Source: Candidatus Kerfeldbacteria bacterium (GTDB lineage Bacteria > Patescibacteriota > Patescibacteriia > SBBC01 > CAIJZX01). Taken from it: a stretch of DNA of 64,000 bases. A model generated the notes under the pieces. The model was not told the DNA's origin. It worked only from the letters and a program-made list of their open reading frames with translations, and did no database searches. The DNA is taken from contig CAVSWO010000002.1 of the NCBI GenBank assembly GCA_963731735.1, positions 192,875 to 256,874 on the forward strand, given 5' to 3'. A program made the position numbers and the translations under genes. Within the stretch, counting starts at the first letter, position 1. Each line of letters opens with the position of its first letter. This document shows positions 1 through 40,105 of this stretch, in pieces.

Positions 1-1615
1 GGTTCGTGCTCGCGCTTTGGCTTTCAAATTGTACCTTGAGGGTGGCACTTTTCGGCTGACCGAACGGTACCGCTTCCCACAAACCAACGCTCGGTGGATT
101 ATATTCAAAGTCACCGTTGCGAATCTTCGCGTCACCACCAACTTGGCGCATCAGTTGCCAAGGCAGCAATCCGCGAATGCTTGGGATACCCGGTTGATCG
201 TCCCAATTCAATCCCGCCACCACGTTCCCTGAAAGATTCGCGATTTGGCTGACTTGCAGCGGGGTTGAATATTCAACGTCCCGTTGATTGGTTAAGGCAT
301 TATTGTCTCCCGACAGATTGCAGGTTCCGCCCCCGGTGCAATCCACGCTGCTCGCGCAAAAACGCAGCGGGTCATTGTCACACTGGCCAGGCGGTAAATA
401 CGAATTGCATTGCCCGTTGGGTCCGAGACTGTTACAAGCCGATAGAGACAGACACAGGTTCTCCGGTGTCTGGCCGTCGAGCGAGACGCCTTGCAGACTG
501 GTCGCGCAACTGAGCCAGAGATTACAGCCGCGATCCTTGCGAACCTTGAGAACGGTGTTAGCGGTACATCGCGACCAGCTGGCGTAACAGACAGAGCCGG
601 CCGGCGTGGGACTGAGGAGCGCGCCATTGGCAGCGTAACAGCTGGCCGGATTGCATTGATACGGTGATCCCGTCAGCGGCGGGTCAGCCAGGCATTGACC
701 ATTACTGCCGCAGGTTTGCCCGCCGGGACAGGTAAAGCCACACTGGGCATCGCAGCGGAAGACCAGACTGCCGCCGGTTTCACAAATCGCGCCCGAGGGT
801 GAACATGAACCAATCGGCGTACCGTCGTTACAGGCGCCGGTTGAGAAGGTTCGATCTTCCGGACTTTTAGCCGTATCAAAAGTCAAATCGTCAGTAACAG
901 TCACGCCACCGGCTTGGTCCGTCGCCCGCAACCGATAATGATACGTCGATTGCGTATCAAGGGATCCGGTCGCCGGGACGTCAATCGAACGCGCGACGGT
1001 TGCATATTGTCCGACCGGTTCACCGTTGGATCCAAGCGTATAACTATCAAAGGTGCCTTTGTTTGAGACATCCCATCGGACTTGGACATTGGCCGATAGA
1101 TTGGTTGAAAAGGATACCTGACATTTTCCACCCTGGCATTGAACGCCCAACGGGGTAATCGCCAACTGACTGTTCCCGGCCGCCCCCGAGGAGGTGGTGA
1201 AAGCCCGATCAGGCGTCGTTCGATTGCCCCCGCCGCCCGGAATTCGCGTGTGGATACGGAAATGATAGGTGGTGCCGCTGGACAGATTATTTAAGGTAAT
1301 GCTGTGCGAGGTCTTATCCTGACCCGGTGAATAGTACCCGCCACCCGCCGGCTCAAAACTGCCGTAGCTCGTCGTCGTTCCATATTCAATCCGGGACTCG
1401 GCCGGCAAGTCCGTTGAGAAATCTATGCGGGCGGAAGTCGCGAAGGTCGAAACATTGACGGACGTAACCGTTGGCGCCGACCCGGCTGGAGGCGCGGCCG
1501 CTTCAGCCGGCGACTGACCCGACCACCAACCAGCCGCAAACAGCCCAGCCAACAACACCAGGCCGCTGAGCGGCAGGATGATTGGACGAAGGATGAAGGC
1601 GAGTCGACGGTTCAT
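1..1615 (-). CDS. Partial (3'-truncated at window edge) large secreted protein. It has a signal peptide, FN3/PAP-N-like repeats (TTYHFRIHT, STYHYRLRATD), a Cys-rich region and a CBM-like C-terminal part. It is paralogous in modules to the two upstream giant proteins.
   Basis: I traced an open frame by eye on the minus strand from the ATG at 1613-1615 (MNRRLAFILRPIILPLSGLVLLAGLFAAGWW...) to position 1 with no stop. It is absent from the ORF track, presumably because it runs off the window. The start lies 4 nt after the TAA of the upstream gene. Confidence 0.55.
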   Translation of the reverse strand, partial: MNRRLAFILRPIILPLSGLVLLAGLFAAGWWSGQSPAEAAAPPAGSAPTVTSVNVSTFATSARIDFSTDLPAESRIEYGTTTSYGSFEPAGGGYYSPGQDKTSHSITLNNLSSGTTYHFRIHTRIPGGGGNRTTPDRAFTTSSGAAGNSQLAITPLGVQCQGGKCQVSFSTNLSANVQVRWDVSNKGTFDSYTLGSNGEPVGQYATVARSIDVPATGSLDTQSTYHYRLRATDQAGGVTVTDDLTFDTAKSPEDRTFSTGACNDGTPIGSCSPSGAICETGGSLVFRCDAQCGFTCPGGQTCGSNGQCLADPPLTGSPYQCNPASCYAANGALLSPTPAGSVCYASWSRCTANTVLKVRKDRGCNLWLSCATSLQGVSLDGQTPENLCLSLSACNSLGPNGQCNSYLPPGQCDNDPLRFCASSVDCTGGGTCNLSGDNNALTNQRDVEYSTPLQVSQIANLSGNVVAGLNWDDQPGIPSIRGLLPWQLMRQVGGDAKIRNGDFEYNPPSVGLWEAVPFGQPKSATLKVQFESQSASTN

Positions 1616-1619
1616 ATGT

Positions 1620-4600
1620 TTAATTGGTACACAGTCCTGAAATATTACAGCTCGTTAACCGATAATGATAGAGCTGGTTCGCGTCCAGGTTGGAAATAGT
1701 CACGCTATGATTGGTTGTCAGAGCGTTTGGATCGCTCGGGTTGCCGTAGATTGGTGCGTTCGGATAGCTACAGGCGCCGCTGGGTGGGCAATTGACGGTT
1801 AGGCCGTAGTCAACTTGGGTGGTTGCCGCGTCATCGGTACACCAGGATATGACCGCCTGCCAGCATTGGGTGCCGCCGCAATTGGTAACGCCCGGCATGA
1901 TCGAAGTTTGGACATCCACCGCGCACGTCAGAACCGGATAACTATTATCATTGACCACGTTGACGGTGACTTCAGCCGGCGCGGAAAGGTTCCCGGCCGT
2001 GTCGCGCGCGACGGCTCGAATGACATACGCGCCATTGGTGGCCGAAAGCGTATTCCAGCTGGCTGAAAAGCTGCAGGTCGTGCCGGTACAAGTGGCCGGT
2101 TGATCAAGGGCCACTTGGCTGGGGTCGGCCTGTAAGAAAATCGTGACTTGCACGCTGCTGACCGATTTGTTATCAGTCGCTGAACCGGTGATCGCGACCT
2201 GCCCAATCACGTCTGCGCCGGAACTGGGCGCGGTTAGGCTGACCGTTGGAAGCACGGTGTCCGGTTCATCCAGGGTGGTGAATTGCAGATCAATGCCGCC
2301 GCTGTTGGTTGTGGCCGTGGTGCAATTCGGGGAACTTGCTTGGTCGCAGGAAATCACGCTGAAGAAGTAGGTGGTCAACGGTTGCAGCGGCTGGTAGACC
2401 AGATCATGACAGCCCGAGGTGCAATCGGTCGTATCATTCGATGTTCCCACGATAGCCGTTCGCGTACTATCGGTGAATATAACTATCGCTGAATCGGCCA
2501 ATTCATCCGTCATCCAGGTTATCCGAACGCTATTCCAGTTAGGATCAGCGGTGATGCCTGAAATGACCGGCCCGGTGGAGTCCGGATCAATGTGCAAAGC
2601 CAGGTTGGCGGTTTTGGTCAAGCTGCCCGCGACCCCGGACACCGTAACCGTGTAATCCCCGGCCGGAACGGCGCTGGTCGTTTGGATGTTGAGCGCGAAG
2701 GCGGTTCCGCTGCCGGTCGGGGTGACTTGGTTCGGGCTCAAGACAAGCGTGAGGTTCGGATCGGTCGGATTGCTGGCCACCGTCAGATCAACTTGACCGG
2801 AAAAACCATTCAGAGCTGTTACGGTTCCACCCACGCTTCCCGACTGACCGGCCGTAATGGTTTGGCTGGTTGGATTCAGTACCAAATTGAAGTCCGGCGG
2901 CGCACTAATGTTCAACGTGATTGGAACGGATTTGGTAATTCCATTGCCGACGCCCGTCACGGTCATCAGGTGCGATCCGGCCGGCGCAGTTGCTTGGGTA
3001 CTGATAGTGAGAGTTGAGGATTGGGTGCCGCTGGCGGATAGCGTTAGACTGGTCGGGCTAAATCCGCCGCCAACTCCGTTTGGTTGCCCGGTCAAACTCA
3101 AGGTTACGTCGCCCGCAAACGTCGAATTAGCCGTGGCTTGGATTTGGTAGGAGGTGCCCTGACCGCCGATCACGCTTTGGGCGGACGGAATCGCGTTCAA
3201 GCTGAAGTCAGGCGCCGGTTTGAGCGTTAAGACCACGGTGGCGGTGGCGGTTTTACTATTTCCAACGCCGGTGATGAGCATGGTAAATGTTCCGGTAGTG
3301 GTCGTATTGGTGGTGAGTGTTAGGGTAGAGACGGCTGAACCGTTGGCTGTCAGGTTGACCGGTGTGACACTAAAGTTTGGCACACTCCCGCCAGGATTGC
3401 CGGATAATGATAAATTGACTGATCCCGTGAAACCATTGACTGACGTCGCGGTGACGTCATAGGTAACGGTGTCCCCCGCATTTTTGGTTTGGGGTTGGCT
3501 GGGATTAGCGCTTAAGGTAAAGGTGGGTTCCGTATAAGTGAAGGTGCTTACCGCCGTGCCTTCGTTGCCGGCGCTATCGGTCGCAAATACGGTCACGGTG
3601 TTTGAACCAATCGTTAACGGTCCAAGCGTCCGATCCCAGGTCACGGCCGGAGCGCCAATAACCGGAACGGTCACGTTTTGACGCGGCGCGCCGTTGAGGG
3701 AATATTCAAGTTTTTCTATCCGGTTATCATCGCTGGCTGTTCCCTTGAACGCCGTCGGCGTGGCGTTGACGGTTGATCCATTCGCGGGTGCGGTAATGGT
3801 CACAGTCGGTGCCTGGGTATCGAGGATGATCGAAGTCGAGGCTGAGCTGTCTGATGAATTTTGTGAACCGTCGCTCGCCGTAGCCACAACGGTATTTGCA
3901 CCGGCTACAAGATTAACGGCGGCTGACCAATTCGTGCTCGTAGTACCCGGCACTCCCGGAGCCGTGACTTTCTGGGCGGTGCCGTTCGAAGTTACGCCGA
4001 TAGAATTCAACCGGATATTGTCACTCGCGCTGCCGCTGACTGTCACCGGCGTGGTTTTTGTGTAGAAGGGTGAGGCGGATGGATTGCTGATTGAAATATT
4101 CGGCGCGATGTTGTCGGGGGCGGTAGTTTGGAAGAAGCCAAACGTACCGGCGCTAACGCCTGAGCCCGAGGATTGAACGCTAAAGTGATAGGTTTGTCCG
4201 TAGGTTAGGCTTCCGGCTGGAAGAGCTAATGAATGAGAGTTGGTTAAAGTGGAATCATTCCAACCAGTCGCGCAGGTTCCGGGAGCTGGGTGACAATGGG
4301 AATACATTGCCACTTTTTGATTTGCCGAACCAACGAATATCCTTGATCCGTCAAGTAGAGTCAATGCATTAATTGATGCATTAACAAGATTATATGCTCC
4401 CCGAAAAAGTGTAGTATTTGAACCGTTATAATATCCAACATCCTGATTTGCAATAAACCAGAAAGTGTTCGGTGACAATAGCGAAAGATCTCCAACTGTC
4501 TGGGACGTTGTTGTTGTGATTGGATTAAATATTGTCCCTCCATCAGTTGATTTCAATATTGTTCCATTTGTTCCTGCAACCCAAATTGTTTGACCATCAA

Positions 4601-5687
4601 GAGTTGCAATACTTTCGAATCGCTCGGAAGTATTGTTGTCAACGGTCCAATTTGCGCCTGCATTTGTTGATCGAACGACTGTCCCATTTAGACCAACAGC
4701 CCATATTGATTTATTATCTATTGTCTTAATGTCATACAATGCGTTGCCCCCACTAAACTTCTGCTGCCAGGTTGTCCCATCAAAGAACAGAATCTTTCCA
4801 TCCTCCGTTGCGACCCAAACTGTTTGTTCGTCTGCCGCAGATATTCCAAAAATTCTACTACTATTACCAGTCGGCGCGGGAGAAATCCAATTTGCTCCTC
4901 CATTAACGGTTCGAATGACTTGACCGGAATCACCAGTCGCCCAAACCAGATTGCTATTCACAACATCCACACCGTAGAGCGCTCCTGATAATCCGCTTGT
5001 TTGACTAGACCATGTACCATTGACGTCTCGTTTTAGTATTACACCGGAGTATCCTACTGCCCATACGACTCCATTTTGATCTGAACTCATGCCAAGAAAG
5101 CCAAAGCCGGCTGGTACACTTTCTGTGCTCCAGGTCGGCCCCACAGTATTGTAATAAACTTTCGAATCCCCCGGAAATGTCGTTTGCCAGGAAATAGTCG
5201 CGCTATTGTCAGTAATGTCCGTAACTTGAAGATTCAAATCGGTAGGTGATTGATAACCTGGATAGGTGGTGGCTGTCTTTGAGGTCGTGGCGGTCGAGCC
5301 GTTCATATTTCCATAGACCTGCACTTGATAGGTGCGTCCGGAACGTAAACCGTTCCGTGTGATTGGAGCCGTACCGCTCGCACTTTGGCTGGTCCAAAAT
5401 GATGGTTGCGCGGTTGGATCCTGGCAAGTTATGGCGGTACCTAAACAATTCCACACGGTCCAGGTGTCTGCTCCGTCATTATTGCCGACACCAAAACTCA
5501 TTGAAGAGCTCGAGACCGATGCAGCTGATGTAGTTAGTGAGAGGCCGCCACAAATTCCTCCCGGTTGTGTACAAATTTCTCCCGCTGAACAAGCTGGACT
5601 ACAATTCGCGGCCAGCACCTGCTGTACCGCCACCAGCGTACAGGCGGCGATAACTAGGATAGCGACAAAGTAGGGAAGTTTGGCCAT
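1620..5687 (-). CDS. Giant secreted/cell-surface protein of about 1355 aa. It has a signal peptide (MAKLPYFVAILVIAACTLVAVQQVLAA), an N-terminal Cys-rich segment, a BNR/Ycf48-like beta-propeller region (repeated T/S-x-D/N-G-G-x-x-W motifs), multiple Ig-like/FN3-like domains and a C-terminal PAP-N/FN3-like Cys-rich end.
   Basis: Track ORF 1620..5729. I chose the second Met (MAKL...) as the start because it begins a classical signal peptide and sits 1 nt after the stop (5689-5691) of the upstream giant gene. Ser/Thr/Gly/Asn-rich extracellular composition. Confidence 0.75.
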   Translation of the reverse strand: MAKLPYFVAILVIAACTLVAVQQVLAANCSPACSAGEICTQPGGICGGLSLTTSAASVSSSSMSFGVGNNDGADTWTVWNCLGTAITCQDPTAQPSFWTSQSASGTAPITRNGLRSGRTYQVQVYGNMNGSTATTSKTATTYPGYQSPTDLNLQVTDITDNSATISWQTTFPGDSKVYYNTVGPTWSTESVPAGFGFLGMSSDQNGVVWAVGYSGVILKRDVNGTWSSQTSGLSGALYGVDVVNSNLVWATGDSGQVIRTVNGGANWISPAPTGNSSRIFGISAADEQTVWVATEDGKILFFDGTTWQQKFSGGNALYDIKTIDNKSIWAVGLNGTVVRSTNAGANWTVDNNTSERFESIATLDGQTIWVAGTNGTILKSTDGGTIFNPITTTTSQTVGDLSLLSPNTFWFIANQDVGYYNGSNTTLFRGAYNLVNASINALTLLDGSRIFVGSANQKVAMYSHCHPAPGTCATGWNDSTLTNSHSLALPAGSLTYGQTYHFSVQSSGSGVSAGTFGFFQTTAPDNIAPNISISNPSASPFYTKTTPVTVSGSASDNIRLNSIGVTSNGTAQKVTAPGVPGTTSTNWSAAVNLVAGANTVVATASDGSQNSSDSSASTSIILDTQAPTVTITAPANGSTVNATPTAFKGTASDDNRIEKLEYSLNGAPRQNVTVPVIGAPAVTWDRTLGPLTIGSNTVTVFATDSAGNEGTAVSTFTYTEPTFTLSANPSQPQTKNAGDTVTYDVTATSVNGFTGSVNLSLSGNPGGSVPNFSVTPVNLTANGSAVSTLTLTTNTTTTGTFTMLITGVGNSKTATATVVLTLKPAPDFSLNAIPSAQSVIGGQGTSYQIQATANSTFAGDVTLSLTGQPNGVGGGFSPTSLTLSASGTQSSTLTISTQATAPAGSHLMTVTGVGNGITKSVPITLNISAPPDFNLVLNPTSQTITAGQSGSVGGTVTALNGFSGQVDLTVASNPTDPNLTLVLSPNQVTPTGSGTAFALNIQTTSAVPAGDYTVTVSGVAGSLTKTANLALHIDPDSTGPVISGITADPNWNSVRITWMTDELADSAIVIFTDSTRTAIVGTSNDTTDCTSGCHDLVYQPLQPLTTYFFSVISCDQASSPNCTTATTNSGGIDLQFTTLDEPDTVLPTVSLTAPSSGADVIGQVAITGSATDNKSVSSVQVTIFLQADPSQVALDQPATCTGTTCSFSASWNTLSATNGAYVIRAVARDTAGNLSAPAEVTVNVVNDNSYPVLTCAVDVQTSIMPGVTNCGGTQCWQAVISWCTDDAATTQVDYGLTVNCPPSGACSYPNAPIYGNPSDPNALTTNHSVTISNLDANQLYHYRLTSCNISGLCTN

Positions 5688-5688
5688 A

Positions 5689-8600
5689 TTAATTCCCACG
5701 GAAATTAAGGGTCGGATTTGAAATATCATTGAACGGTCGGCAGCCCACTTCCGTATTCACCTGTCCATTACAGTCTTGTGAATTATCTTCAACCGTTTGT
5801 CGCAAATAGTCATATGACCGGCAACCCGGAAAACCATTGGCTTCCGTACCGTTACTATCAACGCACCTGCCACCGCCGCACTGGCTGCTGTTTTGGCAGT
5901 TTTGTCCCTGTACATTTGCCGGGCTGGATCCGTCGCAGACCGTAGGTTGGCAGCTGCCATCAACATACACTGGACTGCCGCCCTGCTGAATCAGCGGACA
6001 TTCGCTGCGGCAACCCGGTGGATCGGACGGATCGCGATATTCATTGCAGCCGTTCTGCGCATTTGGACAGGTTCCGGCCAGGTAAACGCAGGTGTTGCTG
6101 CCGGCACAGTTACTTTTCCCCGACGTGGAGTTGATCGAACATTGTCCATAAACGGTTTTGCCTTTTCCATCAACGATTTTTCCAATCAAGCTCGCGTCGC
6201 CCACACAGGTTGACCCGGGACAGTCGCCGTCACTGACGCAGGCTTTACCGACCCGTTGTCCGTCCTGACAAACCGGACTGCAGGAGGCACCGATGGGCTG
6301 ACCCTGGAGGGGCGGCGTGGTAATCGGACAACGCGAATTGGTGCCGGTGATGTACCAGGTGCCGCCAACATCCGAATCATCCGCCCGGAATTCACAGGTC
6401 TGTGAGCTCGGATCCTTGAAGAAGGCGGCCGTACCATTACTATCGGTATAGGCTTTACACGATAATTCATTCTGCAAACAAATATCTGTACTATACCGAT
6501 CTGGATTGTTTTTCAGGTAGACGGTTTGGAAGCCGGTCAGGGTATGATCGGTCGAATACACCGGCAAGCCGTATGCCTGGCATCCGAGTTGTGAAGACGC
6601 ACAGTAGGCAGCCTTATTGTTGACCACGGTTACGACTTGGTCGGCCGGCGTGAACTCATTCTTGACGGTCTGTGCAAATGGGCTGCTGCTATTCTGGGTG
6701 TCGATCATGGCTTCACAGCCGACCACTTGTTCGGAACAGATGCGGTTGAATGACTTCAGGTATTGACTCTGTCCGGCCCGATCGCGATAGGCAGCGCATC
6801 CAATTTCACTGGCTTGGCAAATCGGGACGGTCGGCTGGACTAAGTAGAGACTGTCGTTGATTTCGGTCAGCACCACGTTGTCGACGAAAGCCTCCCCGCC
6901 GCTGACGCTGATCCCGAGGCGGAAATCGCGACCGTTCAGAGCCACTGGGCCATAGGTATATTGCTGCCACTGCGGTCCGGCCGGGGTAATATTTTCGTTC
7001 CATCGCAGCGTGCCCGGATTTGTTGTCAGTGGCTGCGTCAAATCAAATCCCCCGTCGGCCATTCGCAGCGTCCGTTCGACTTCGCCGCCGAAGCCGGCGT
7101 TGATGGTCGCGCCGTCACTGGCCTGGTTGGCGGCGGCGGCATAGAAACTGACCACGTATGATTTACCGTCCGTCAGCTGGGTGTCCAGCACGGAAGCTTG
7201 GGTGTAGGCGGCGGCTTTTCCGGCTGCCCCAACGGGGATATACATCGAGTGACCGCCCAGGGTCGTGGACTCGGTCACGTTAACTCCCCCCACCCAATTG
7301 TTGGTTGTGCCGGATTCGAAGGTGTCGTTCAAAATTGCCCGCGCGGTCCGGCCGCTATTCCCGGTATAAGCGCGACACCCAGCCGCGGCGGCTGAACACG
7401 AGACGTTTTCATTGGCCGACAGGAAATATACATTGTCGTTATTATTCGGATCATTATCGTTCTGATCGGTGGTGTTCCGATATGGTGTACAAGCGGCCGT
7501 GACCGTGACGGTTTTTGAACGTAAGCGGTAATACACCTGCAATGCTGAATCATAAAATTCACCGCAATCCGGATTGGTCGCCAAGTCGGCCGCCGAACAA
7601 CTGGCAATGGTGGTTGACGTGTCGTTACAGGTCGGCGTCCCGCCAGCTGAATTTCCTGGTGTCACATTGGTACAGGGTCCGTTATTGAGGTTTGATTGCA
7701 ACAATTCATGCGCTTGCAACACGAATCCTTTTTGCGCGTTCCCAACCCAGCTGTAATAGGTGACTTGATTGGTGGCGGTTGGATCGGGCTTGACGCATTG
7801 TTTGACTGATTGGAAATATTCTTTGCCTTCGCCACCGCGCGCCACTTCATCCAGGTTAGTATATTCTTCGCACCCGACTTGTGAGGCGTTGCATTGCTGA
7901 CCCTTCGGCGCGACGATATTCGTGTATCCGCCGGCCCGGCTGATTGGCCCGGTGGTGTATGGTTCGAGGTAATAGGTCGCGCACCCAACGTCGTCGGCAC
8001 TACAGCGATTGCTGTTTCGAACTTGGCCGTTGACTACCGGGCCGCCGGCTAGCGGCGTATACGCTTCACACCCGACATCATCGGAACTGCAGGCAACTCG
8101 TTTCTTATTGAGGGCTAGGGTGTTAACCAGCCCGTAATCTTTATACTGTGATTGTCCGCCCTCTTCGACTTGAGCGCTGTCGATCACCAGACCCGCGCAG
8201 TTCCCCGGTTCAATAGTGAAGGTCAGGGCATTGCTGCTGGATGTCTGTTGATCTTCTCGTCCGATGACTAGCAAGGCACTGGCGGATCCCCAGTCCGTGC
8301 CAACCGTCACGTCTTGCGTCGTTGAGTCGACGTCAGTCGTTAGGGTTACCTTGGCCTGACATTCAGCGCTGGCCTTGGCTCGAACTGATCCGACAAAGTT
8401 TCGTTCGTAGAGGTGGTAGCCGGTATCGATGGTTGAAGAAATTGAGCCGGTCAGCGCCACCGCGGTCAGATTGCTGCCGTTAATCGCTTGGTCCGAGGCC
8501 GCCACCGCTTGCGCGCCATTTTGATTCCAGCCGGCGAAATCATCATCGGATCCATCATCAGCCTGACCGGTAAAGGTCTCGAACCCGCTGTTCGGAATCA

Positions 8601-11199
8601 GGTTTGTCCCGCCGGTTGTCCGAATAAATTTCCGGCAACCTTCACCGGAAGCGTTACAGCTTTCAACGTTCCCGGTAAACCGGACGATATCGTCACCCAC
8701 GGAACCCGGCACATCATCGACCTTGGGTTCGCTGCATTGCCAGGTTTGGGAATCCTGATTGTAGGCCGAGCAGTACCACTGGCATCCGGCCACCTCGGAG
8801 TTGCACTTTCGGAAATCCAAGGTTGAGGCCAGGTAAGAATTCTGTTGGCCGCTGGCGTCGGTGTAAGTGGTGCAGCTGGCATACTGCGCGTCGCAGCGGG
8901 TGCCGTCGAAGCGGAAGGTTTGCCGCTCTTGGACGCAGTAGCCGAAGGCGATACAGGTGCCATCCTCATTTTCGGCGATACAGGATTGTGTATCAGCACA
9001 GGTGTTAGCATTCCGACTGACGACCCAGCGTCCAATGTCAGGGCCAAAGGCACTATTCGTACAATTCGGCACATTGCTGCCCAGGGCGTTTGTATCGCTG
9101 GAACCCAGGACGTTATCTTGGTCGCAGACAAATTCCTTGGTTACAATTTCTTCGCCGGCGCCCTGTCGTCGGCAATAGGTCTGGGGAGCTTTTAAGACCC
9201 AGTTCGGATCCACTAAACCACAGTATGGACTCGGTGTGAGCTTGGCCTGACAACCTTCTCCGTCCGCGATTTGAGCTTGGGTCACTCCGCATTGGCTGTC
9301 GGCTGTGCAGGTTTGCCCGGCATTCGTGCTGCCAGCTGTACAAACTTTATCGTCAGGCGTGGCGGTATGCTGAGAGTCTTGGCCGCAGATATCATATTGC
9401 TTGATCAGATACCCAAGGCTCAAGTCACGCGGGTCAAATTCTTGACTGTAGAGAGCCGCCAACTCCCAACCCACCGGCGTGATGCGATATTTCCGGAGAT
9501 ATTGCAACGACCGGTACGAATAGCCGTTCCGTGGCTGTATTCCATTTTTATCAAAACCAAAAGTCTTGCGTGCGTCGAGCAAGCCTTGCTTGAGTGCTTC
9601 CTGGACCGTTAACTCACTGTCAATCGCGTTTCGAAACTGGGAATCAATTAATCCAGCGCTGGACAATTCGGATGTCACATCAACTTCATTGCGTCCCGGA
9701 TCGCCGGTTCGGATGTCGACTTGGCCGATTTGAGCGAATTGGAGTTGCGCGCCGGCGATACCGGTTGCGCCACCGGAGCCGAAGAGGAGCTGGCCCAGTG
9801 CCGATGTTGGGTTTGTTGGTCCGCTGCAAGCATTTGGATTTAACCCACATCGACTCTTGAAAAAATTCGTCAGGACACGACCGATTGGACTACTAATAAA
9901 GGCTGACAAGCCTTTGATGATATCGGCGCCCGGTTGACCGGTGAAAACCGCGTTGGCGTCCGACCCGCCGGTCAGCGCGCTCAATAAACTTTGTTGCCCC
10001 GCTTCACGCGGAACGAGCACCACGCCGCTGACCTTCGAGGTGCGCGGGAGTATTCCGCTGGACTGCTTGGTCTGTTCCGCTTGCACGGCTGCTTGTTGCT
10101 TTTCTCCGAGGTCCGAATAGGCCACCAATAATTTACCGATATCACTGTTGCCAACCGACAGGGAATTGGCGACCACTACCGAAGCTTCCGGCGCTTGTAA
10201 CTGACCAACCGCCGAAAAGAAGTCCGTGGCCGTCAGCTGGTTGACGGTCTGGTCGGCCAGGGCGGTTATCCCCTTACCACAATCGGTCGCACATTTACCG
10301 GCTTCCGACGCGCCTTTGCTGCGCTCGACGTTTATCGCTTCGTTCATGCGGGATTGGCAAAGGGAGGCCGACATCTTGCAGGTGTCGGCATTGGCCGTAT
10401 TGTCACAGGCGCCGGGTAAAATCCGCCACGGCACATACGAGCTGCCGACCGTTGGATCACCCGGAAATATATCCGAACAGGTAACTTCTTTATCGGGCGT
10501 CGTCCCGGCCACTTCATTAATCCCGGGATTGAGATCAACCCCGGCCAGATGATCGTAGATCAGCTGGACATTGCGCTCATGATCATTCAGCTCATTCGGG
10601 TTCGGCCGGGGTCCGAGGGCGGCATTGCTTTTTGAATCTGGAATCACGTCAATTACTCGATACAAGGTGCTGCAATCTTCCTGGCACTGCTGAACCGGTG
10701 AGCCAATTGCGGTTCGCAAAATACGGGAAATGACAAATCGCTGACGGGCATCACTGGTCGAGGTCCCGACTCCGTTTTCTCCGGTTACGCCTCGAGTGTA
10801 TTCATCAATAAAATCTCCGGCTGCACTGTTCAGCACATTCGGCCAATAATCTTTAAAGTTGGTGATAAACAGCGGCTGCTGCCCGGGACCGGTGGTGGCG
10901 ATGTCGGTTAACACCTCTTGCGCAATCCGAGCGTTATATACCTCGAGCGTGTTCTTGAAAGCGATGGCGGCCGCGCCTTTGGTGGCTTTGTCGATGCGCT
11001 CGGCTGCATTAGTAATAAAATCCGCAATCCGCCGCGGGATGTCGCCGATCGTGGTCGTTACCGAGACGGGGCTCTGCGCCAAGGCCGGTCGGGCATTGAA
11101 ACCGAACCATAGACCTGTTCCGACGACCAAAAACAAGGCCACCAAAACGTGCCGGCGGAGGCGAGATCGTGTTCGGCGTTGATGGGGATTCGGACTCAT
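5689..11199 (-). CDS. Giant (1836 aa) Cys-rich secreted protein. It has an N-terminal signal anchor/peptide (…LVALFLVVGTGLWFGFNARPALAQS), very many paired cysteines and at least two carbohydrate-binding-module-like (CBM4/9/22-like) beta-sandwich segments.
   Basis: Track ORF on the minus strand. Composition and motifs (N-x-x-FE-type CBM segments, hundreds of Cys/Gly/Thr/Asn) read directly from the sequence. Its start overlaps the stop of the upstream TSP3 gene by 4 nt (ATGA). Confidence 0.75.
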   Translation of the reverse strand: MSPNPHQRRTRSRLRRHVLVALFLVVGTGLWFGFNARPALAQSPVSVTTTIGDIPRRIADFITNAAERIDKATKGAAAIAFKNTLEVYNARIAQEVLTDIATTGPGQQPLFITNFKDYWPNVLNSAAGDFIDEYTRGVTGENGVGTSTSDARQRFVISRILRTAIGSPVQQCQEDCSTLYRVIDVIPDSKSNAALGPRPNPNELNDHERNVQLIYDHLAGVDLNPGINEVAGTTPDKEVTCSDIFPGDPTVGSSYVPWRILPGACDNTANADTCKMSASLCQSRMNEAINVERSKGASEAGKCATDCGKGITALADQTVNQLTATDFFSAVGQLQAPEASVVVANSLSVGNSDIGKLLVAYSDLGEKQQAAVQAEQTKQSSGILPRTSKVSGVVLVPREAGQQSLLSALTGGSDANAVFTGQPGADIIKGLSAFISSPIGRVLTNFFKSRCGLNPNACSGPTNPTSALGQLLFGSGGATGIAGAQLQFAQIGQVDIRTGDPGRNEVDVTSELSSAGLIDSQFRNAIDSELTVQEALKQGLLDARKTFGFDKNGIQPRNGYSYRSLQYLRKYRITPVGWELAALYSQEFDPRDLSLGYLIKQYDICGQDSQHTATPDDKVCTAGSTNAGQTCTADSQCGVTQAQIADGEGCQAKLTPSPYCGLVDPNWVLKAPQTYCRRQGAGEEIVTKEFVCDQDNVLGSSDTNALGSNVPNCTNSAFGPDIGRWVVSRNANTCADTQSCIAENEDGTCIAFGYCVQERQTFRFDGTRCDAQYASCTTYTDASGQQNSYLASTLDFRKCNSEVAGCQWYCSAYNQDSQTWQCSEPKVDDVPGSVGDDIVRFTGNVESCNASGEGCRKFIRTTGGTNLIPNSGFETFTGQADDGSDDDFAGWNQNGAQAVAASDQAINGSNLTAVALTGSISSTIDTGYHLYERNFVGSVRAKASAECQAKVTLTTDVDSTTQDVTVGTDWGSASALLVIGREDQQTSSSNALTFTIEPGNCAGLVIDSAQVEEGGQSQYKDYGLVNTLALNKKRVACSSDDVGCEAYTPLAGGPVVNGQVRNSNRCSADDVGCATYYLEPYTTGPISRAGGYTNIVAPKGQQCNASQVGCEEYTNLDEVARGGEGKEYFQSVKQCVKPDPTATNQVTYYSWVGNAQKGFVLQAHELLQSNLNNGPCTNVTPGNSAGGTPTCNDTSTTIASCSAADLATNPDCGEFYDSALQVYYRLRSKTVTVTAACTPYRNTTDQNDNDPNNNDNVYFLSANENVSCSAAAAGCRAYTGNSGRTARAILNDTFESGTTNNWVGGVNVTESTTLGGHSMYIPVGAAGKAAAYTQASVLDTQLTDGKSYVVSFYAAAANQASDGATINAGFGGEVERTLRMADGGFDLTQPLTTNPGTLRWNENITPAGPQWQQYTYGPVALNGRDFRLGISVSGGEAFVDNVVLTEINDSLYLVQPTVPICQASEIGCAAYRDRAGQSQYLKSFNRICSEQVVGCEAMIDTQNSSSPFAQTVKNEFTPADQVVTVVNNKAAYCASSQLGCQAYGLPVYSTDHTLTGFQTVYLKNNPDRYSTDICLQNELSCKAYTDSNGTAAFFKDPSSQTCEFRADDSDVGGTWYITGTNSRCPITTPPLQGQPIGASCSPVCQDGQRVGKACVSDGDCPGSTCVGDASLIGKIVDGKGKTVYGQCSINSTSGKSNCAGSNTCVYLAGTCPNAQNGCNEYRDPSDPPGCRSECPLIQQGGSPVYVDGSCQPTVCDGSSPANVQGQNCQNSSQCGGGRCVDSNGTEANGFPGCRSYDYLRQTVEDNSQDCNGQVNTEVGCRPFNDISNPTLNFRGN

Positions 11200-12041
11200 T
11201 GGTTCAAGCCTTGCAGGAATATTTGTTTGAGGGTTGCATCGTCGTAACTGGCAATGTCGCTGGCACCGACACCGCTTTGGATGAGGAGTTGGCGAATTTC
11301 GTCTCCGGACAGCTGCTGTAAATCAGTCAGTGTCAGGTCGGCCGCATTGACGTTCCCGCCTTGGGCCAAGACTTCTTGATAGATACCCAGCAACTGATCA
11401 TCCGGGATGTTATCCAGCACGCTTTGGGCGACACCGGCGTCGCGTAAAGCTTGACGCAGGAAATCAGGCGTTAACTGATCGCTGGAATTGACGATCACCC
11501 CCGCCGTAAAACCGGTGCAGCTTTTTCCAGCCGGACAGTTCGGATCGGTACCTTGACGAACCTCGGTCGCGTCATCAATCCCGTCGCTATCGGAATCTTT
11601 CAAGTAGGGACTCGTTTTGAGTTGAAAGAGCTCGGTATAATCCGACAAACCGTCCCCGTCGGTATCTTTATTCTCCAGCGCCGATAACTGTTCAACCGAA
11701 GTGTTGGTATTGGCGTTGGCGAGGAGGTTGACCGGTGCCTGCTGTCCCAGCCGATGAATGCTGGACCATATTATCCAGCCACTCAATCCAATCGCGAGCA
11801 GTCCCACTCCCAACGTGAAGGAAAAAGCCTGCTGTCGCGTTCCATCGAGTTGCCGAACTTGGCGCTGCCCGGAAATAATTCCGATCAGACCGTCGATTAC
11901 CCGCTGAAAAAAGTTTCGCAGTCTCTGAAACATGAATGAAAATGTCGAAAAAGCATCTGGTTTCGGACGATCGGTCTGCTGCATGAGGCGCTGCTGTACC
12001 GGACCCGCGAACGTGTGGAAAAATCGCGTTTGAGAAACCAA
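11196..12041 (-). CDS. Membrane-anchored protein with thrombospondin type-3-like Ca-binding repeats (DTDGDGLSDYTE / DSDSDGIDDATE). One TM segment (AFSFTLGVGLLAIGLSGWIIWSSI). The real start is possibly the internal Met (MFQRLRNF..., about 11933).
   Basis: Track ORF. DxDxDGxxD repeats and the TM helix are seen in the translation. First gene of the four-gene minus-strand cluster. Confidence 0.6.
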   Translation of the reverse strand: MVSQTRFFHTFAGPVQQRLMQQTDRPKPDAFSTFSFMFQRLRNFFQRVIDGLIGIISGQRQVRQLDGTRQQAFSFTLGVGLLAIGLSGWIIWSSIHRLGQQAPVNLLANANTNTSVEQLSALENKDTDGDGLSDYTELFQLKTSPYLKDSDSDGIDDATEVRQGTDPNCPAGKSCTGFTAGVIVNSSDQLTPDFLRQALRDAGVAQSVLDNIPDDQLLGIYQEVLAQGGNVNAADLTLTDLQQLSGDEIRQLLIQSGVGASDIASYDDATLKQIFLQGLNQ

Positions 12042-12078
12042 AAATGTACGTTTACTATAGCACAGATTGGCCCTGAAG

Positions 12079-12894
12079 TCAAAATAGCTGAGGCGCTAAT
12101 CTCACCCAATCTTCAACGCGCAATTCCTGGGCCCGAGTCGATGGATCAATTCCCTCCGTTTCTAAAATTTCCTTGATTTCTTCCTGTTTTCTGTGCAAAG
12201 CGTGAGCTAAGGTGTTATGGAGTTGTTTTCGACGACCTGAAAATCCGGCCCGAGCCACTCGAAATATTGTAGTTGCTTGCTCCTCCGGAATCGTTCGAAT
12301 GTCCGGAAAGTCAATCACGGCCGAATCAACCTTCGGGATTGGGTAGAAGCTCTGGGCCGGCACCAACTGGACGATCCGCGGTCGACTATAGAGTTGGGCC
12401 AGCAGACTCAACAGGCTCATCTGCCCCGGTTTGGCCACAATTCGCTCGGCTACCTCGCGCTGAAGCATCAAGGTCATGCGCTTGGGACGCGGTTTGAGCG
12501 TCAAGAGGTTGCGAATCAACAACGAAGTGGCACCGTACGGAAGATTGGCCACGACTTGATAGGCCCGATCGTGCAGCCTTTCATCCAAACGGACTTTGAA
12601 AACATCTCCGGGGATAATTGTTACCCGGGGATTTTCCGCGTAGTGTTTTTTCAACCAGGCTGACAAGCGCTGATCAAGTTCAACGGCCACCACCTGCGCT
12701 CCGGCCCCCAACACCGCGTCCGTCAGGATGCCAAACCCCGGCCCGACCTCAAGGACGGTTGATTCGCGCGAGACCTTGGCGGTCGCGACCATACGGTCTA
12801 CCACAGATCGGTCACACAAAAAATTTTGTCCGGCCGCGATTTGTGGCTTGAGTCCAATTTGCCGGATTAGCCGCTGGAGCGTTGTCCGATCCAT
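12079..12894 (-). CDS. rsmA: 16S rRNA (adenine1518/1519-N6)-dimethyltransferase RsmA/KsgA
   Basis: SAM-binding motif LEVGPGFGILT, conserved NLPY motif and overall KsgA architecture in the 271-aa translation. Confidence 0.9.
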   Translation of the reverse strand: MDRTTLQRLIRQIGLKPQIAAGQNFLCDRSVVDRMVATAKVSRESTVLEVGPGFGILTDAVLGAGAQVVAVELDQRLSAWLKKHYAENPRVTIIPGDVFKVRLDERLHDRAYQVVANLPYGATSLLIRNLLTLKPRPKRMTLMLQREVAERIVAKPGQMSLLSLLAQLYSRPRIVQLVPAQSFYPIPKVDSAVIDFPDIRTIPEEQATTIFRVARAGFSGRRKQLHNTLAHALHRKQEEIKEILETEGIDPSTRAQELRVEDWVRLAPQLF

Positions 12895-14055
12895 TTAGAA
12901 CAGCAAGTAGAAGAAAGAAACCAGGCCGGCCAATACGAATCCGGTGGTGAACGGAGAAAAAGTTTGAGCCGCAATCACAACCACTACCGCGATCAAAATT
13001 TTACCGATCGCGAAGCCTTGTTCTAAAAAGACCGCGCGCTCAATCACATTTTTTTCGGCCAATGCGCGTTCATACGAAATATCTGAAATGGTCACGAAGG
13101 TCGCGTTTTTTGCCACCATCCCGACGGTCGCGCTGGTAAATACCATCCCGACCGTTTTGAGCAGCGGACGGGTAAGCCAAACCAGCACCGTAATCACCGC
13201 TCCCCAGTTGAGCGTTCGTTTCCAATGCCCTTTGTCGATCGATTGACCGAACTTGAGCGTCACGATGGCCGTCAACAACGTCGCTAAGGCGATGGCGCTT
13301 CCGAGCGAGAGATAGTCTTTAAACGTCAAAGCGATAAATATCGGCCAAATAGTCATCAAAATCAGCTCCTCGCCGAAGGCCAGGTAGGCCAGGGTGGTTC
13401 GAATATGTAAGCGTCGGAACGGCATCATCAGGCTGTCCCGGTATGAAAAGCCTTGGGGAATATAGGGGATTTTCTCCATAAACAATGGCACGTTCGACAG
13501 CACAATCAGTCCGATCACCATCCCGAAAAGAATCGGGAACCCGAAAAATTTAATGATAGTTCCGCCCAGCAGCGGTCCCAGGATGTACATAACGGTCGAA
13601 ACGGACCACAGGCCCGAATACTGTTTTCCGCGTTCGCCTTGATCGGAACTTTGGATAAAATCGGTATGGTAGGCTGGCCAGTAGAACATTTTCTGGAGTG
13701 CAAAAAATATTGGAGCCACCCAAAACAAGAACGCCGCGTCCGGCAGAAAGAGTAAACTCCCATAGTAGCCGACCAACATAAAAGTGCTGATTGCAATACT
13801 GCGTTCCGGACCGCGCCGAGCCACAAATAATCCGCCTAGCGGAACCAGAAAGTAGTACACCCCGTATACCAAGACGTAGTACATCATAATGTGCTGAATG
13901 CTGTACCCAAGTTGATACAGATAGACCGGTTCGAACAGAATAACCGCCGCTAGCGCGAAATCCAGGATCGCCACCGAATAATACAATTCCTGCAGCTGAT
14001 GGCTGAAGTGCTTGCGGAAGTAGAAGGGGAAACTATGAACGAAGGGGATTCGCAT
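12895..14055 (-). CDS. Polytopic membrane transporter (MFS-like, 10-12 predicted TM segments)
   Basis: Highly hydrophobic 386-aa ORF with repeated TM helices. Its stop abuts the rsmA start. Confidence 0.6.
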   Translation of the reverse strand: MRIPFVHSFPFYFRKHFSHQLQELYYSVAILDFALAAVILFEPVYLYQLGYSIQHIMMYYVLVYGVYYFLVPLGGLFVARRGPERSIAISTFMLVGYYGSLLFLPDAAFLFWVAPIFFALQKMFYWPAYHTDFIQSSDQGERGKQYSGLWSVSTVMYILGPLLGGTIIKFFGFPILFGMVIGLIVLSNVPLFMEKIPYIPQGFSYRDSLMMPFRRLHIRTTLAYLAFGEELILMTIWPIFIALTFKDYLSLGSAIALATLLTAIVTLKFGQSIDKGHWKRTLNWGAVITVLVWLTRPLLKTVGMVFTSATVGMVAKNATFVTISDISYERALAEKNVIERAVFLEQGFAIGKILIAVVVVIAAQTFSPFTTGFVLAGLVSFFYLLF

Positions 14056-14579: not shown

Positions 14580-15521
14580 TTACATTCTTTGATGGAACCA
14601 CTCGAGAGTTTTTTGCCGTGTATCTTCAAACGCTTTTTTCAATTTTTTGGCGTTTTTTGTTCCTTCGTGCAGCCCTGCGTTGGGAGGCCAGAGAAATGCG
14701 ATACGGATATTTGGATGGGGACGGCTTTCGAAGGTGGTTCGAAAAGTCGTCTTTCGTTGCACGATGTCCCAGGATTTTCGCGGGCCGAGTTGTCGCAGCG
14801 TAAGAAGTCCCGCCACATAATCCCCGAAACCGGGATGGTAATTCTTTGCGATCTCGAATGCTTGGTTGGGTAACACCAGTACATCAGTAGGATGGAACAT
14901 GGTAATCACCTTGGACATCGGCAAGGGATCGTCGAAGCCTCCGTCACAGTAGTATGTATTATTGACGGGCACCCAGGATCCAAATAATCCTGGTATGGCG
15001 ATTGAGGCCCGGATGGCCTCTAACATCCCCGGTTGTGCAGTTTTTGCGTCAAAAAGTTCCATGTGACCCTTCCGCGTGATTGCCGAAACGAAGAATTGGG
15101 ACGGATGTCGTCGAATGGCCTGGGTATTAAGCGCCTTTGGACCCCGCTTCATCCAAGTGATCAATTGATCAATATCGACAAGTTTCTTGAATCGCCAAGG
15201 ATTCATGAATGCATTGCTTGTGCATTCTTCGTAGTACAGTGAAGAACCGAGTCGGACTTGATCCTGACCGGCTAGAAAATAGGCGGCGGTCGGAGCGCCG
15301 GTAGATACTCCGACGACCACGTCAAAAACATCCCCTAACCCCAGTTCATGCAACGCCGCGGCCGAACCGGCTCCATACGGGCCGCGCATACTTCCTCCAA
15401 GAATTAATAATGCGGTTCGGGTGGTTTGATGTTCCGGTTTCTGATCGCGTCGAGCGACTAACGTAGCTACGAGATCTTTCTCAATTCTTGATGTTTCATT
15501 CAAACTCTGCTTATTGCTCAC
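14580..15521 (-). CDS. Patatin-like phospholipase
   Basis: Gly-rich oxyanion motif GGSMRGPYGAG, GxSxG nucleophile (GVSTG) and catalytic Asp in CDGGFDD. Confidence 0.75.
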   Translation of the reverse strand: MSNKQSLNETSRIEKDLVATLVARRDQKPEHQTTRTALLILGGSMRGPYGAGSAAALHELGLGDVFDVVVGVSTGAPTAAYFLAGQDQVRLGSSLYYEECTSNAFMNPWRFKKLVDIDQLITWMKRGPKALNTQAIRRHPSQFFVSAITRKGHMELFDAKTAQPGMLEAIRASIAIPGLFGSWVPVNNTYYCDGGFDDPLPMSKVITMFHPTDVLVLPNQAFEIAKNYHPGFGDYVAGLLTLRQLGPRKSWDIVQRKTTFRTTFESRPHPNIRIAFLWPPNAGLHEGTKNAKKLKKAFEDTRQKTLEWFHQRM

Positions 15522-18238: not shown

Positions 18239-19495
18239 ATGGAGGCGCTTGGAAAAGGCGTTGGTACGGTAGTCCGATTTGCTTTCAAACCATTCGGCTG
18301 GGTCGCGCGTGGCGTATTTCGGTTTTTTATTTTCCCGCTCTACTCGTACTACACCAAGATAAAACAACGCATAAAATTCCATCCACGGATGGTTGGCATC
18401 CGTTCGGTCAGCCATTTTTTTAGCCACTACGCCGTTTATATCACCCTGGTGGTGCTCGGGGTATTTGGTCTCGGCACCAACTTATTCGCCCGGACTATTC
18501 GTCCCGACGAAGTTGGCCAAGGCGCGGCCTGGGCAACCTTCCAACAAGGCGATGGAGCCCTGATCGTCGAATCCGGCACGGGGAAACCGCCGGTCGTGGA
18601 TAACCTTACGGAAGCGGCCGTTGGCGGTCCAGCCATCGCTGAAACCAAAACCCTGATTGACACCGCCGTCTCCGCGCCAATTGATAATCTGGCGGCCGTT
18701 GGCGGAGCGAGTGAACTCGCTTCAACCAAGCGTGACACGGTCGTGCAATACACCGTCCAGGGCGGAGACACGGTCAGTACGATCGCGGCTAATTTTGGTA
18801 TCTCCTCTCAAACGATTCTCTGGGCGAATGGACTTGGGGCCGGCGATTTTATAAAACCCGGCCAAGTTTTGAAGATCCCTTCCGTGACGGGATATTTGTA
18901 TACCGTCAAGAGCGGGGATACCCTGGCGAAAATTGCCGCTACCTATAAAGGTGATCAAGATCAAATTTTGGCCGCTAATGATTTACCATTAGCGGAAGCA
19001 ATTCAAGCGGGCCAGACCATCATTATCCCTGGCGGGCAACCACCAGCGCCGCCGGCTCCGCCGAAGCAAACGATCATCGCCAGCGCGCCCACCTTCTCCG
19101 GTGGAACCCCGCCGCCTTCGATTGCGGCGACTGGCGCCAAATTTGTTTGGCCGACCGTCAGTCATCGGATCAACCAGTACTATCGTGGCCGGTACCATAC
19201 GGGCATTGATATCGACGGTGATACCGGGACGCCGGAATATGCGGCCGCGGCCGGCACCGTGACCTATGCATCGGCTGACCGCAGCGGATATGGATTGCAT
19301 GTCGTGATTGATCATGGCAATGGGTACATCACACTCTACGGCCACGCGAGTAAGCTCTATGTTCAGCGTGGTCAACATGTGAATCAAGGACAAACCATTG
19401 CCGCCATGGGCTGCACTGGCCGCTGTACCGGTCCGCACCTCCACTTCGAAATCCGATACCACGGCGGCTTCCTCAACCCCCTATCGTTCTACTAG
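18239..19495 (+). CDS. Membrane-anchored LysM-LysM-M23 family peptidoglycan endopeptidase
   Basis: Two LysM motifs (YTVQGGDTVSTIA..., YTVKSGDTLAKIA...) and M23 active-site motifs (HTGIDIDG, HxH in GPHLHFEIRYHG). N-terminal TM helix. Confidence 0.85.
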   Translation: MEALGKGVGTVVRFAFKPFGWVARGVFRFFIFPLYSYYTKIKQRIKFHPRMVGIRSVSHFFSHYAVYITLVVLGVFGLGTNLFARTIRPDEVGQGAAWATFQQGDGALIVESGTGKPPVVDNLTEAAVGGPAIAETKTLIDTAVSAPIDNLAAVGGASELASTKRDTVVQYTVQGGDTVSTIAANFGISSQTILWANGLGAGDFIKPGQVLKIPSVTGYLYTVKSGDTLAKIAATYKGDQDQILAANDLPLAEAIQAGQTIIIPGGQPPAPPAPPKQTIIASAPTFSGGTPPPSIAATGAKFVWPTVSHRINQYYRGRYHTGIDIDGDTGTPEYAAAAGTVTYASADRSGYGLHVVIDHGNGYITLYGHASKLYVQRGQHVNQGQTIAAMGCTGRCTGPHLHFEIRYHGGFLNPLSFY

Positions 19496-39110: not shown

Positions 39111-39128
39111 TTTTTCAAAGGACGTTTC

Positions 39129-39160
39129 GGCCGGCCGCCCTTGCGGCCGGCGGTTTGTAT
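39129..39160 (+). terminator. GC-rich hairpin (GGCCGGCCGC-cctt-GCGGCCGGC) followed by TTTGTAT. A second hairpin follows (AACCGC...GCGGTT).
   Basis: Read directly downstream of the pilT stop. Confidence 0.45.
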
Positions 39161-39196
39161 AAAAAAACCGCAGGGCATCCCGCGGTTGTCTGGTTT

Positions 39197-39463: not shown

Positions 39464-39512
39464 AAGACAGCCGGGGAAAACCGACTCAGTCTATCTGACC
39501 GCCCGATGTTTG

Positions 39513-40028: not shown

Positions 40029-40105
40029 GCGCCCGTAGCTCAGTGGATTAGAGCATTTGGCTTCGGACCAAAGGGTCGGGGGTTCGAGTCCCTCCGGGCG
40101 CACCA
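40029..40105 (+). tRNA. tRNA-Arg (anticodon TCG), CCA encoded
   Basis: Hand-folded: acceptor GCGCCCG/CGGGCGC, D stem GCTC/GAGC, anticodon stem TTTGG/CCAAA with loop CTTCGGA, T arm GGGGG-TTCGAGT-CCCTC. Confidence 0.8.

Follow-up and report, generated by a model that had tools for sequence, protein, structure and literature searches.

A TSP3-repeat membrane protein and giant, cysteine-rich secreted proteins as a putative surface module of a type IV secretion system in Candidatus Kerfeldbacteria

Results

Four packed genes for a TSP3-repeat membrane protein and three large secreted proteins

In this study, we analyzed a 64,000-nucleotide stretch of DNA from a Candidatus Kerfeldbacteria bacterium (contig CAVSWO010000002.1 of assembly GCA_963731735.1, positions 192,875 to 256,874; here referred to as the window), one end of which carries four consecutive genes on the minus strand (here named g1 to g4). 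They encode a membrane protein with thrombospondin type 3 (TSP3) repeats followed by three large secreted proteins and are examined here as a candidate surface module of a type IV secretion system (T4SS). An initial annotation of the same DNA had described four packed genes on the minus strand, the first two overlapping by 4 nt and the following ones separated by 1 nt and 4 nt, and a check of the open reading frames (ORFs) and their junctions reproduced this arrangement. The longest ORF of g1 covers 11196..12041, and the gene likely extends from an ATG at 11933 (11196..11933). It is followed by g2 at 5689..11199, encoding a secreted protein of 1836 amino acids, and by g3 at 1620..5687, counted from its second ATG (longest ORF, 1620..5729), for a secreted protein of 1355 amino acids. 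The last gene, g4, occupies 1..1615, with 538 codons from an ATG at 1615 and a frame that is open at the window edge. The ATG of g2 overlaps the stop codon of g1 by 4 nt, the ATG of g3 (at 5687) lies 1 nt past the stop codon of g2, and the ATG of g4 lies 4 nt past that of g3; orthologs of g3 likewise start 1 to 2 nt after g2. Re-reading of the ORFs also gave the previously stated sizes of 1836, 1355, and at least 538 residues, and the stop codons that had been feared in the partial ORF at 1..1615 are absent (0 in 538 codons).

The earlier view of the proteins as secreted or surface exposed is supported by a single N-terminal hydrophobic segment in each, where A-x-A sites of signal peptides were judged by eye, and every domain that had been named for them was recovered by Pfam. 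The guess that the DNA belongs to an episymbiotic bacterium with a small genome was right as well, as the named homologs of g2 are from Candidatus Kerfeldbacteria, a group placed in the class ABY1 within the candidate phyla radiation (CPR) in the data set of a recent survey (PMC12102498).

A sigma-70-like promoter match (12054..12082, minus strand) is located where ksgA ends, immediately upstream of g1, and is composed of TTGACT, a spacer of 17 nt, and TG-n-TATAGT. It agrees with the consensus at 10 of 12 positions plus an extended -10 element and ranks first among 17 sites in 1..13500; as a match to the consensus only, it is a predicted promoter. Tandem Repeats Finder detected no DNA repeats in 1..12500, an Rfam scan of the window returned only tRNAs, all of them outside the g1 to g4 region, and PADLOC gave no match to defense systems.

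g1 is a bitopic protein with calcium-binding repeats

The small membrane protein with TSP3 repeats that had been proposed for g1 was confirmed by a Pfam match to TSP3_bac (PF18884) in two stretches (36.9 bits versus a cutoff of 25). With the ATG at 11933 as its start, g1 aligns over the full length with a 244-amino-acid ortholog (51% identity), so its length is probably 245 amino acids. A single internal hydrophobic segment indicates a bitopic topology, in which a transmembrane helix is followed by extracellular TSP3 Ca-binding repeats and a conserved, helical C-terminal region. Matches to the NCBIfam equivalogs MtsD and CglD stayed far below their cutoffs, so g1 does not belong to these families. 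An RTX-like or "Ca_tandemer" adhesin was likewise considered and rejected (22 bits versus a cutoff of 50).

g2 combines a helical N terminus with cysteine-rich jelly-roll domains

The g2 protein consists of a signal peptide (residues 1 to 41), an alpha-helical part (residues ~45 to 640), and an all-beta, Cys-rich part (residues 641 to 1836). A word-indexed search yielded 23 homologs, 21 of them full length, and a sequence search against the PDB gave no match. Structures were modeled with AlphaFold2 (AF2) from family alignments of 22 to 23 sequences. Residues 40 to 640 were predicted mostly as long helices (mean pLDDT, 56) without a Foldseek match (best E value, 0.49), and residues 641 to 1836 as all-beta (mean pLDDT, 57), with two jelly-roll sandwiches as the confident parts. 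The first sandwich (8140..8622, minus strand; residues ~860 to 1020) resembles carbohydrate-binding module (CBM) family 4, with Foldseek hits to CBM4/16/22 domains. The second one (AF2 sandwich at residues ~1290 to 1450) contains a marginal Pfam match to CBM_4_9 (PF02018) at 7021..7338 on the minus strand, corresponding to residues 1288 to 1393 (26.3 bits versus a cutoff of 25.9). Foldseek matches of the sandwiches comprise modules of CBM4, CBM16, and CBM22 as well as domains by which the Cry and CDTb toxins bind their receptors. Furthermore, a profile of the g2 family weakly matched the CBM4 of laminarinase 16A in the first sandwich (E = 0.0064) and, also weakly, the CBM22 of xylanase C in the second one (PDB search). 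Judged from these models, the sandwiches appear to adopt CBM4/22-like folds and are putative sugar binders. Within the Cys-rich region, conservation is lowest in these two sandwiches, with 28 to 47% column identity to the reference versus 56 to 76% in the Cys scaffolds.

A role in polysaccharide attachment had been suggested earlier. As far as degradation is concerned, this is unsupported: no catalytic domain was found in g2 to g4 by Pfam, NCBIfam, PDB profile search, or Foldseek, and a glycoside hydrolase or polysaccharide-utilization function was rejected on this ground.

The C-terminal tail of g2 (...GCRPFND.S.P.LNFRG[QEN], at ~5692..5720 of the window) is nearly invariant in homologs of the split form described below. 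In fused proteins, the chain runs from the corresponding point directly into a g4-like part, and the tail may be a contact point with g4.

g3 carries a beta-propeller on an Ig/FN3 stalk

Pfam matches in g3 were obtained for Big_7 (61.3 bits), PSII_BNR (39.1 bits), Pur_ac_phosph_N (30.9 bits), and fn3. The protein starts with a signal peptide and a fibronectin type III (FN3) domain, followed by a BNR/Ycf48-like beta-propeller, Big_7 immunoglobulin (Ig) domains, four repeated Ig-like modules, and FN3 modules of the type found at the N terminus of purple acid phosphatases (PAP-N). It shows 42% identity to its ortholog and occurs only in split loci of the Kerfeldbacteria type.

The propeller head (4248..5120, minus strand; residues ~190 to 480) is supported by the PSII_BNR match, for which the cutoff is 27 bits. 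Since the score for the NCBIfam Ycf48 equivalog is 36.9 and thus far under its cutoff of 326, g3 is predicted to carry a propeller of the Ycf48/BNR class without being Ycf48. GC content at third codon positions is 0.23 to 0.40 in the propeller versus 0.55 to 0.75 in the remainder of g2 to g4, while that of codon positions 1 and 2 is unchanged. The nearest relatives of the propeller are found in the loci L007 and L005, and those of the remaining g3 in a related genome (here called the K genome) and in L020. The propeller therefore looks like a head module that was exchanged recently, with a donor of lower GC content.

g2 and g4 correspond to the two halves of a widespread giant protein

The g4 fragment in the window comprises a signal or anchor segment, two PAP-N/FN3 modules (Pfam Pur_ac_phosph_N and fn3), and a Cys-rich region that is homologous to the C-terminal half of fused giant proteins. 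A PDB sequence search with g4 gave one weak FN3 match (5j7k_A, E = 0.047), and the word-indexed homologs of the fragment were for the most part generic FN3 proteins, next to a 798-amino-acid product of its own genome (P0024), which represents the full g4 product. Orthologs are 1310 to 2003 amino acids long; P0024 can be aligned with them as far as residue ~776, beyond which its sequence differs and comes to a stop.

The relation between g2 and g4 is evident from the locus L008 ("Parcubacteria GWA2_48_9"), in which a single protein of 2923 amino acids is encoded between homologs of g1 and of the gene that follows g4 in related loci (g5; see below). Its residues 1 to 1754 align with g2, and residues 1754 to 2859 align with residues 319 to 1280 of g4. 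P0022 (2875 amino acids) has the same g2-plus-g4 build. By alignment, g2 and g4 are thus the halves of one giant, which other CPR lineages produce as a single chain. A HMMER scan with residues 641 to 1836 of g2 identified 1302 cluster representatives (E ≤ 1e-3), of which 1045 reached E ≤ 1e-30; the clusters of this family (~1,300) are defined at 50% identity. Since most of the representatives are 2500 to 4000 amino acids long, the fused giant is the common form. Kerfeldbacteria have a split arrangement, in which g3 is inserted and g4 carries a signal peptide and FN3 modules of its own.

Cysteines are enriched and conserved in g2 and g4

In total, 123 Cys residues were counted in g2 (77; 4.2%), g3 (23; 1.7%), and the g4 fragment (23; 4.3%), compared to a background of 0.66% in 43 other ORFs of at least 150 amino acids in the window. 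The "hundreds" of cysteines mentioned in the initial annotation were therefore an overstatement for the part of g2 to g4 that lies in the window, and the description of three Cys-rich giants holds for g2 and g4 but not for g3. Conservation of the residues is high: of the 77 Cys residues of g2, 75 are retained by 19 or more of 21 homologs whose identity to g2 is 34 to 57%, and g2 contains 12 copies of the motif C-x6-C-x2-[YFWM] versus 0.23 as expected from shuffling. Given full-length homologs and conserved cysteines, low-complexity artifacts are excluded; g2 to g4 are real and constrained proteins, which are presumably disulfide bonded. In the T4SS of locus L003, the cytoplasmic and membrane parts contain no Cys at all, and a pilin-like protein contains 5.6%. 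Cysteines in this lineage thus seem to be concentrated in the exported proteins of the T4SS locus.

Orthologous loci continue into type IV secretion genes

In the Kerfeldbacteria contig JACPSJ010000001.1, genes for Sua5/YrdC, an MFS protein, and KsgA are followed by g1 (244 amino acids), g2 (1861 amino acids), g3 (1366 amino acids), and g4 (1310 amino acids). The next gene, g5, overlaps g4 by 4 nt in L001. In L003, it encodes a polytopic protein of 967 amino acids and is followed by genes for three proteins without known domains (231, 110, and 564 amino acids), PrgI/VirB3 (PF12666, 3.6e-11), a TrsD-like protein of 242 amino acids (NCBIfam TrsD, 2.7e-6; VirB4_plasma, 5.7e-11), a VirB4 ATPase (17001-18926; NCBIfam conju_CD1110, 347 bits versus a cutoff of 325), two small proteins, and a Cys-rich, VirB2-like protein with a T4SS_pilin domain (2.1e-8). 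The g5 protein has about eight hydrophobic segments and a C-terminal extension of ~550 amino acids. By itself, it gave no match in Pfam or in a PDB sequence search; its homologs P0068 and P0095 pass the threshold of Pfam TrbL (28.8 and 29.0 bits versus 25.9), and some members of the family are named "type IV secretion system protein."

The string from g2 to g5 and on to VirB4 was also found in L004-L007, L014, and L020, with overlaps or gaps of 1 to 6 nt at the junctions; that between g4 and g5 in L004, L005, and L007 is an overlap or gap of 1 to 2 nt. VirB4 is 83 to 85% identical in L005-L007 and occurs in L013 and L014 as well, and synteny into T4SS genes extends to L013 and L019. The genome analyzed here has a g5 ortholog of 927 amino acids (P0091), which shows 52% identity in the membrane domain and is encoded on the 822,872-bp contig that also carries g1 to g4.

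The neighborhood was furthermore inspected in six loci that were picked through the giant protein and not through g5 (L001, L015, L016, L017, L018, and L019). A g1-type protein is encoded directly upstream of the giant in all six, and ksgA was confirmed just before g1 in five of them, with a gene for 299 amino acids at this place in L019. Five of the six also have a VirB6-like, g5-type gene downstream of the giant, the exception being L016; in L019, an IS200-type Y1 transposase gene (10778..11443) lies between the two. As judged from synteny, the giant thus lies between a g1-type TSP3 protein and a VirB6-like gene across many lineages. By their gene content, these orthologous loci encode the MPF-FATA-like (MPF, mating pair formation) T4SS described for Patescibacteria. 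The gene structure of the adhesion apparatus operon that had been proposed earlier stands, but not its description as a self-contained unit of four genes, as the string continues into the T4SS in syntenic genomes. g1 to g4 would represent the 5' part of a T4SS locus of ~14 genes, the rest of which is expected to start just past the window edge.

The window encodes candidate disulfide-forming enzymes

All thioredoxin-fold genes that had been assigned in the window exist. A DsbA-like oxidoreductase is encoded at 36907..37671 on the plus strand (PF01323, 71.3 bits). A fusion of DsbD_TM (CcdA-like), redoxin, and Thioredoxin_10 domains was identified by its domain matches at 41301..43037 (minus strand), and a thioredoxin gene (43040..43570, minus strand) lies immediately upstream of it; both would form a reducing or isomerizing branch beside DsbA. 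The statement that an oxidant of the VKOR or DsbB type is missing probably does not hold, and the tentative candidate named along with it gained some support: the ORF at 40292..40747 (plus strand), located between tRNA-Arg (40029..40105) and tRNA-Pro (40815..40890), encodes a membrane protein of 151 amino acids that matches VKOR (PF07884, E = 2.4e-5), albeit at 24.9 bits and thus under the Pfam cutoff of 27.5. Based on this match, the oxidant of DsbA is probably present in the window. The DsbA-like protein probably catalyzes disulfide formation in g2 and g4. In L013, a DsbA/Thioredoxin_4 gene (22363..22992) is located within the T4SS locus itself, between pilin genes.

Two small ORFs on the minus strand are also high in Cys, namely, 39115..39516 (133 amino acids, 12 Cys including CxxC pairs) and 46068..46343 (91 amino acids, 7 Cys); they may not be genes.

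Other genes near g1 to g4

About 6 kb upstream of g1, the window encodes a LysM-LysM-Peptidase_M23 protein (18239..19495, plus strand), whose location is conserved in the K genome (L001 1..633). Since the survey of Patescibacteria T4SS counts M23/LysM proteins among VirB1-like wall hydrolases (PMC12102498), this protein may open the cell wall for the system. A patatin-like phospholipase gene (14580..15521, minus strand) lies between the genes for leucyl-tRNA synthetase (LeuRS) and Sua5/YrdC. Its position is variable, being taken by an APH-type kinase in the K genome; a host-membrane-directed function of the enzyme is possible. LeuRS comprises 969 amino acids in the window. In the K genome, it was read as a protein of 1306 amino acids with internal Ham1p-like and NUDIX matches (L002 691..4611) versus a 522-amino-acid fragment in the NCBI record (L001 3043..4611), a discrepancy that could reflect an insertion in LeuRS or a gene-calling artifact.

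Discussion

A candidate docking module of the Patescibacteria T4SS

Translational coupling of the four genes, synteny into T4SS genes, the fusion of g2 and g4, an extracellular and disulfide-type signature, and binding-type folds together suggest that g1 to g4 constitute the extracellular surface module, serving as adhesin or docking device, of the monoderm, MPF-FATA-like T4SS of Patescibacteria. We assign this reading a probability of roughly 0.6. According to the proposed mechanism, the T4SS operon would be transcribed with g1 to g4 as its first genes, and g2, g3, and g4 would leave the cell by Sec via their N-terminal signal peptides. DsbA and its VKOR-like partner would then oxidize the exported proteins, yielding rigid, disulfide-stapled stalks. 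A C-terminal LPxTG motif was found neither in g2, g3, and g4 nor in their orthologs, which rules out a sortase-anchored adhesin. Since this sortase signal is lacking, we propose that the proteins are retained by the bitopic, Ca-binding g1, which would hold them at the membrane beside the VirB6 channel. The sandwiches of g2 and the propeller of g3, the latter on its Ig/FN3 stalk, would bind host glycans or surface proteins and thereby dock the secretion channel and the pilus onto the host. Sandwiches and propeller are the most variable parts, as expected for host-specific recognition.

Several points weigh against this interpretation. The function of g1 to g4 is deduced from gene neighborhoods and folds; the AF2 models are of low quality (mean pLDDT, about 56), and the 600-residue helical N terminus of g2 has no recognizable fold. 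The T4SS genes lie outside the window, and their adjacency in the genome analyzed here is based on synteny and on the presence of P0091 on the same contig. In addition, the 798-amino-acid g4 may be split, damaged, or the product of an assembly frameshift. Loci of Uhrbacteria and Falkowbacteria keep g5, PrgI, TrsD, and VirB4 without homologs of g2 to g4, so the module would be accessory to the core T4SS. Finally, L016 has g1 and the giant without a VirB6-like neighbor, and in L012 the triad of g1, giant, and VirB6-like gene stands away from virB4.

The last two loci also bear on an alternative that we consider unlikely but in need of discussion, namely, that the proteins are T4SS-independent envelope adhesins, for example, an S-layer-like coat, whose genes are adjacent to the T4SS only as highly expressed envelope genes downstream of ksgA near the origin. 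The arrangement in L016, where ksgA, g1, and the giant occur without an adjoining VirB6-like gene, is what such adhesins would predict. Giant proteins with adhesion domains are moreover common in CPR epibionts, with no stated link to a T4SS (PMC13059738), and ksgA and other origin-proximal genes are often found near virB4. However, the stop/start coupling between the VirB6-like gene and g4 or the fused giant is seen again in lineages whose other flanks differ. In L012, the triad is intact though virB4 is located elsewhere; therefore, the giant is tied to VirB6 and not to a chromosomal position.

Alternatively, and in our judgment rather improbably, g2 to g4 could be structural parts of the conduit, i.e., a wall-spanning or extracellular stalk or the base or tip of the pilus, which replace the VirB7/9/10 core or VirB5 instead of acting as adhesins. 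The tight coupling of the genes to VirB6, the rigidity of a disulfide-stapled repeat architecture, and the long, conserved, helical N terminus of g2 would fit such a function, as would the presence of VirB2-like pilins in a system in which VirB5, VirB8, and VirB9 were not recognized. In contrast, ligand binding is the typical function of CBM-like and propeller modules, and the ABY1 relatives Uhrbacteria and Falkowbacteria, with their VirB6-like, PrgI, TrsD, and VirB4 proteins, manage without g2 to g4, which makes a universal structural role unlikely. A conduit function overlaps with that of a docking module, and both may hold together. Secreted polysaccharide-degrading or nutrient-harvesting enzymes, in which carbohydrate-binding modules would be joined to catalytic domains, would fit the CBM_4_9-type modules and a weak match of the propeller to the F510_1955 glycosylhydrolase family (39 bits). 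This reading is nevertheless very improbable, because the searches named above gave no catalytic domain and the propeller match remains far under the family cutoff of 175.

Taking the docking module one step further, the TSP3 anchor, the disulfide-stapled giant (here g2, g3, and g4), and the extended VirB6 might together form a CPR-specific extracellular bridge for docking or feeding, which connects the T4SS channel to the host envelope and would explain why the T4SS is essential for epibiotic life. This is a tentative idea, possible but less likely than not. If it were true, swappable CBM and propeller heads would set the host range, and the family of >1,000 clusters would represent a major, yet undescribed class of T4SS components.

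Comparison with known systems

T4SS of Patescibacteria were surveyed phylum-wide by Quinonero-Coronel et al. (2025; PMC12102498) and found to be MPF-FATA-like and often located near ksgA. Southlakia epibionticum requires the T4SS (SEML1_0006-0019), along with several adhesins, to grow as an epibiont (Wang et al. 2023; PMC10633639). The role of the T4SS in CPR bacteria and its route to the host have been described as unknown (PMC11665869), and the survey detected no adhesin in any Patescibacteria T4SS (PMC12102498). The loci orthologous to the one described here share with these systems the core set and its order after g4 (VirB6-like, PrgI/VirB3, TrsD, VirB4, and VirB2-like pilins) as well as the chromosomal location beside ksgA, and neither a relaxase nor a coupling protein was seen in the locus. 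They differ in the TSP3 protein and the giant Cys-rich family upstream of the VirB6-like gene, which the survey does not describe and whose terms are absent from the supplements covered (PMC12102498). What is already known thus comprises the T4SS of Patescibacteria and giant, adhesin-like proteins of CPR bacteria, whereas their combination in a triad of TSP3 protein, giant, and VirB6 is apparently new. No description of a triad of TSP3 protein, giant Cys-rich protein, and VirB6 was found in the literature, as covered by open-access papers.

A comparable gene order is known from the enterococcal plasmid pCF10, in which the genes for the surface adhesins, prgA, prgB, and prgC, precede the channel genes prgD-L. 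The general point that adhesin genes occur in monoderm T4SS operons is cited in the survey as well (PMC12102498). In both systems, the 5'-terminal genes of a monoderm T4SS operon encode large, Sec-exported surface proteins, and these are presumed to make the cell-cell contact that an outer-membrane complex cannot provide in monoderms. In contrast to the pCF10 adhesins, g1 to g4 show no homology to PrgB in Pfam and NCBIfam and carry no LPXTG motif; by these measures, they are not members of the PrgB or aggregation substance family. They also differ in that g2 to g4 are disulfide rich overall, contain CBM and propeller modules, and are accompanied by a dedicated TSP3 membrane protein.

A second parallel is found in Rickettsiales, whose extended VirB6 proteins reach, for example, 4,322 amino acids in VirB6-4 of Anaplasma (PMC7648143; reviewed in PMC12857230). 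Here, too, a very large hydrophilic mass is tied genetically or physically to VirB6 in a host-dependent bacterium with a small genome, and the VirB6-like g5 is likewise extended at its C terminus (by ~550 amino acids). The extension is, however, part of the VirB6 polypeptide in Rickettsiales, while separate Sec-exported proteins are encoded in the locus described here.

By description, g2 to g4 can further be likened to the giant proteins of the Absconditicoccaceae epibionts Strigamonas and Vampirococcus. These exceed 1,500 amino acids, have signal peptides as well as FN3, Ca-stabilized, or lectin-type adhesion domains, and were proposed to function in host recognition (PMC13059738). Size, signal peptides, and adhesion-type domains are common to both groups, but neither a linkage to a T4SS nor a Cys-rich scaffold or a TSP3 partner has been described for the Absconditicoccaceae proteins. 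Located between a Ca-binding anchor and a VirB6-like gene, the giant Cys-rich family provides concrete candidates for the part of the Patescibacteria T4SS that contacts the host and suggests possible determinants of host specificity.

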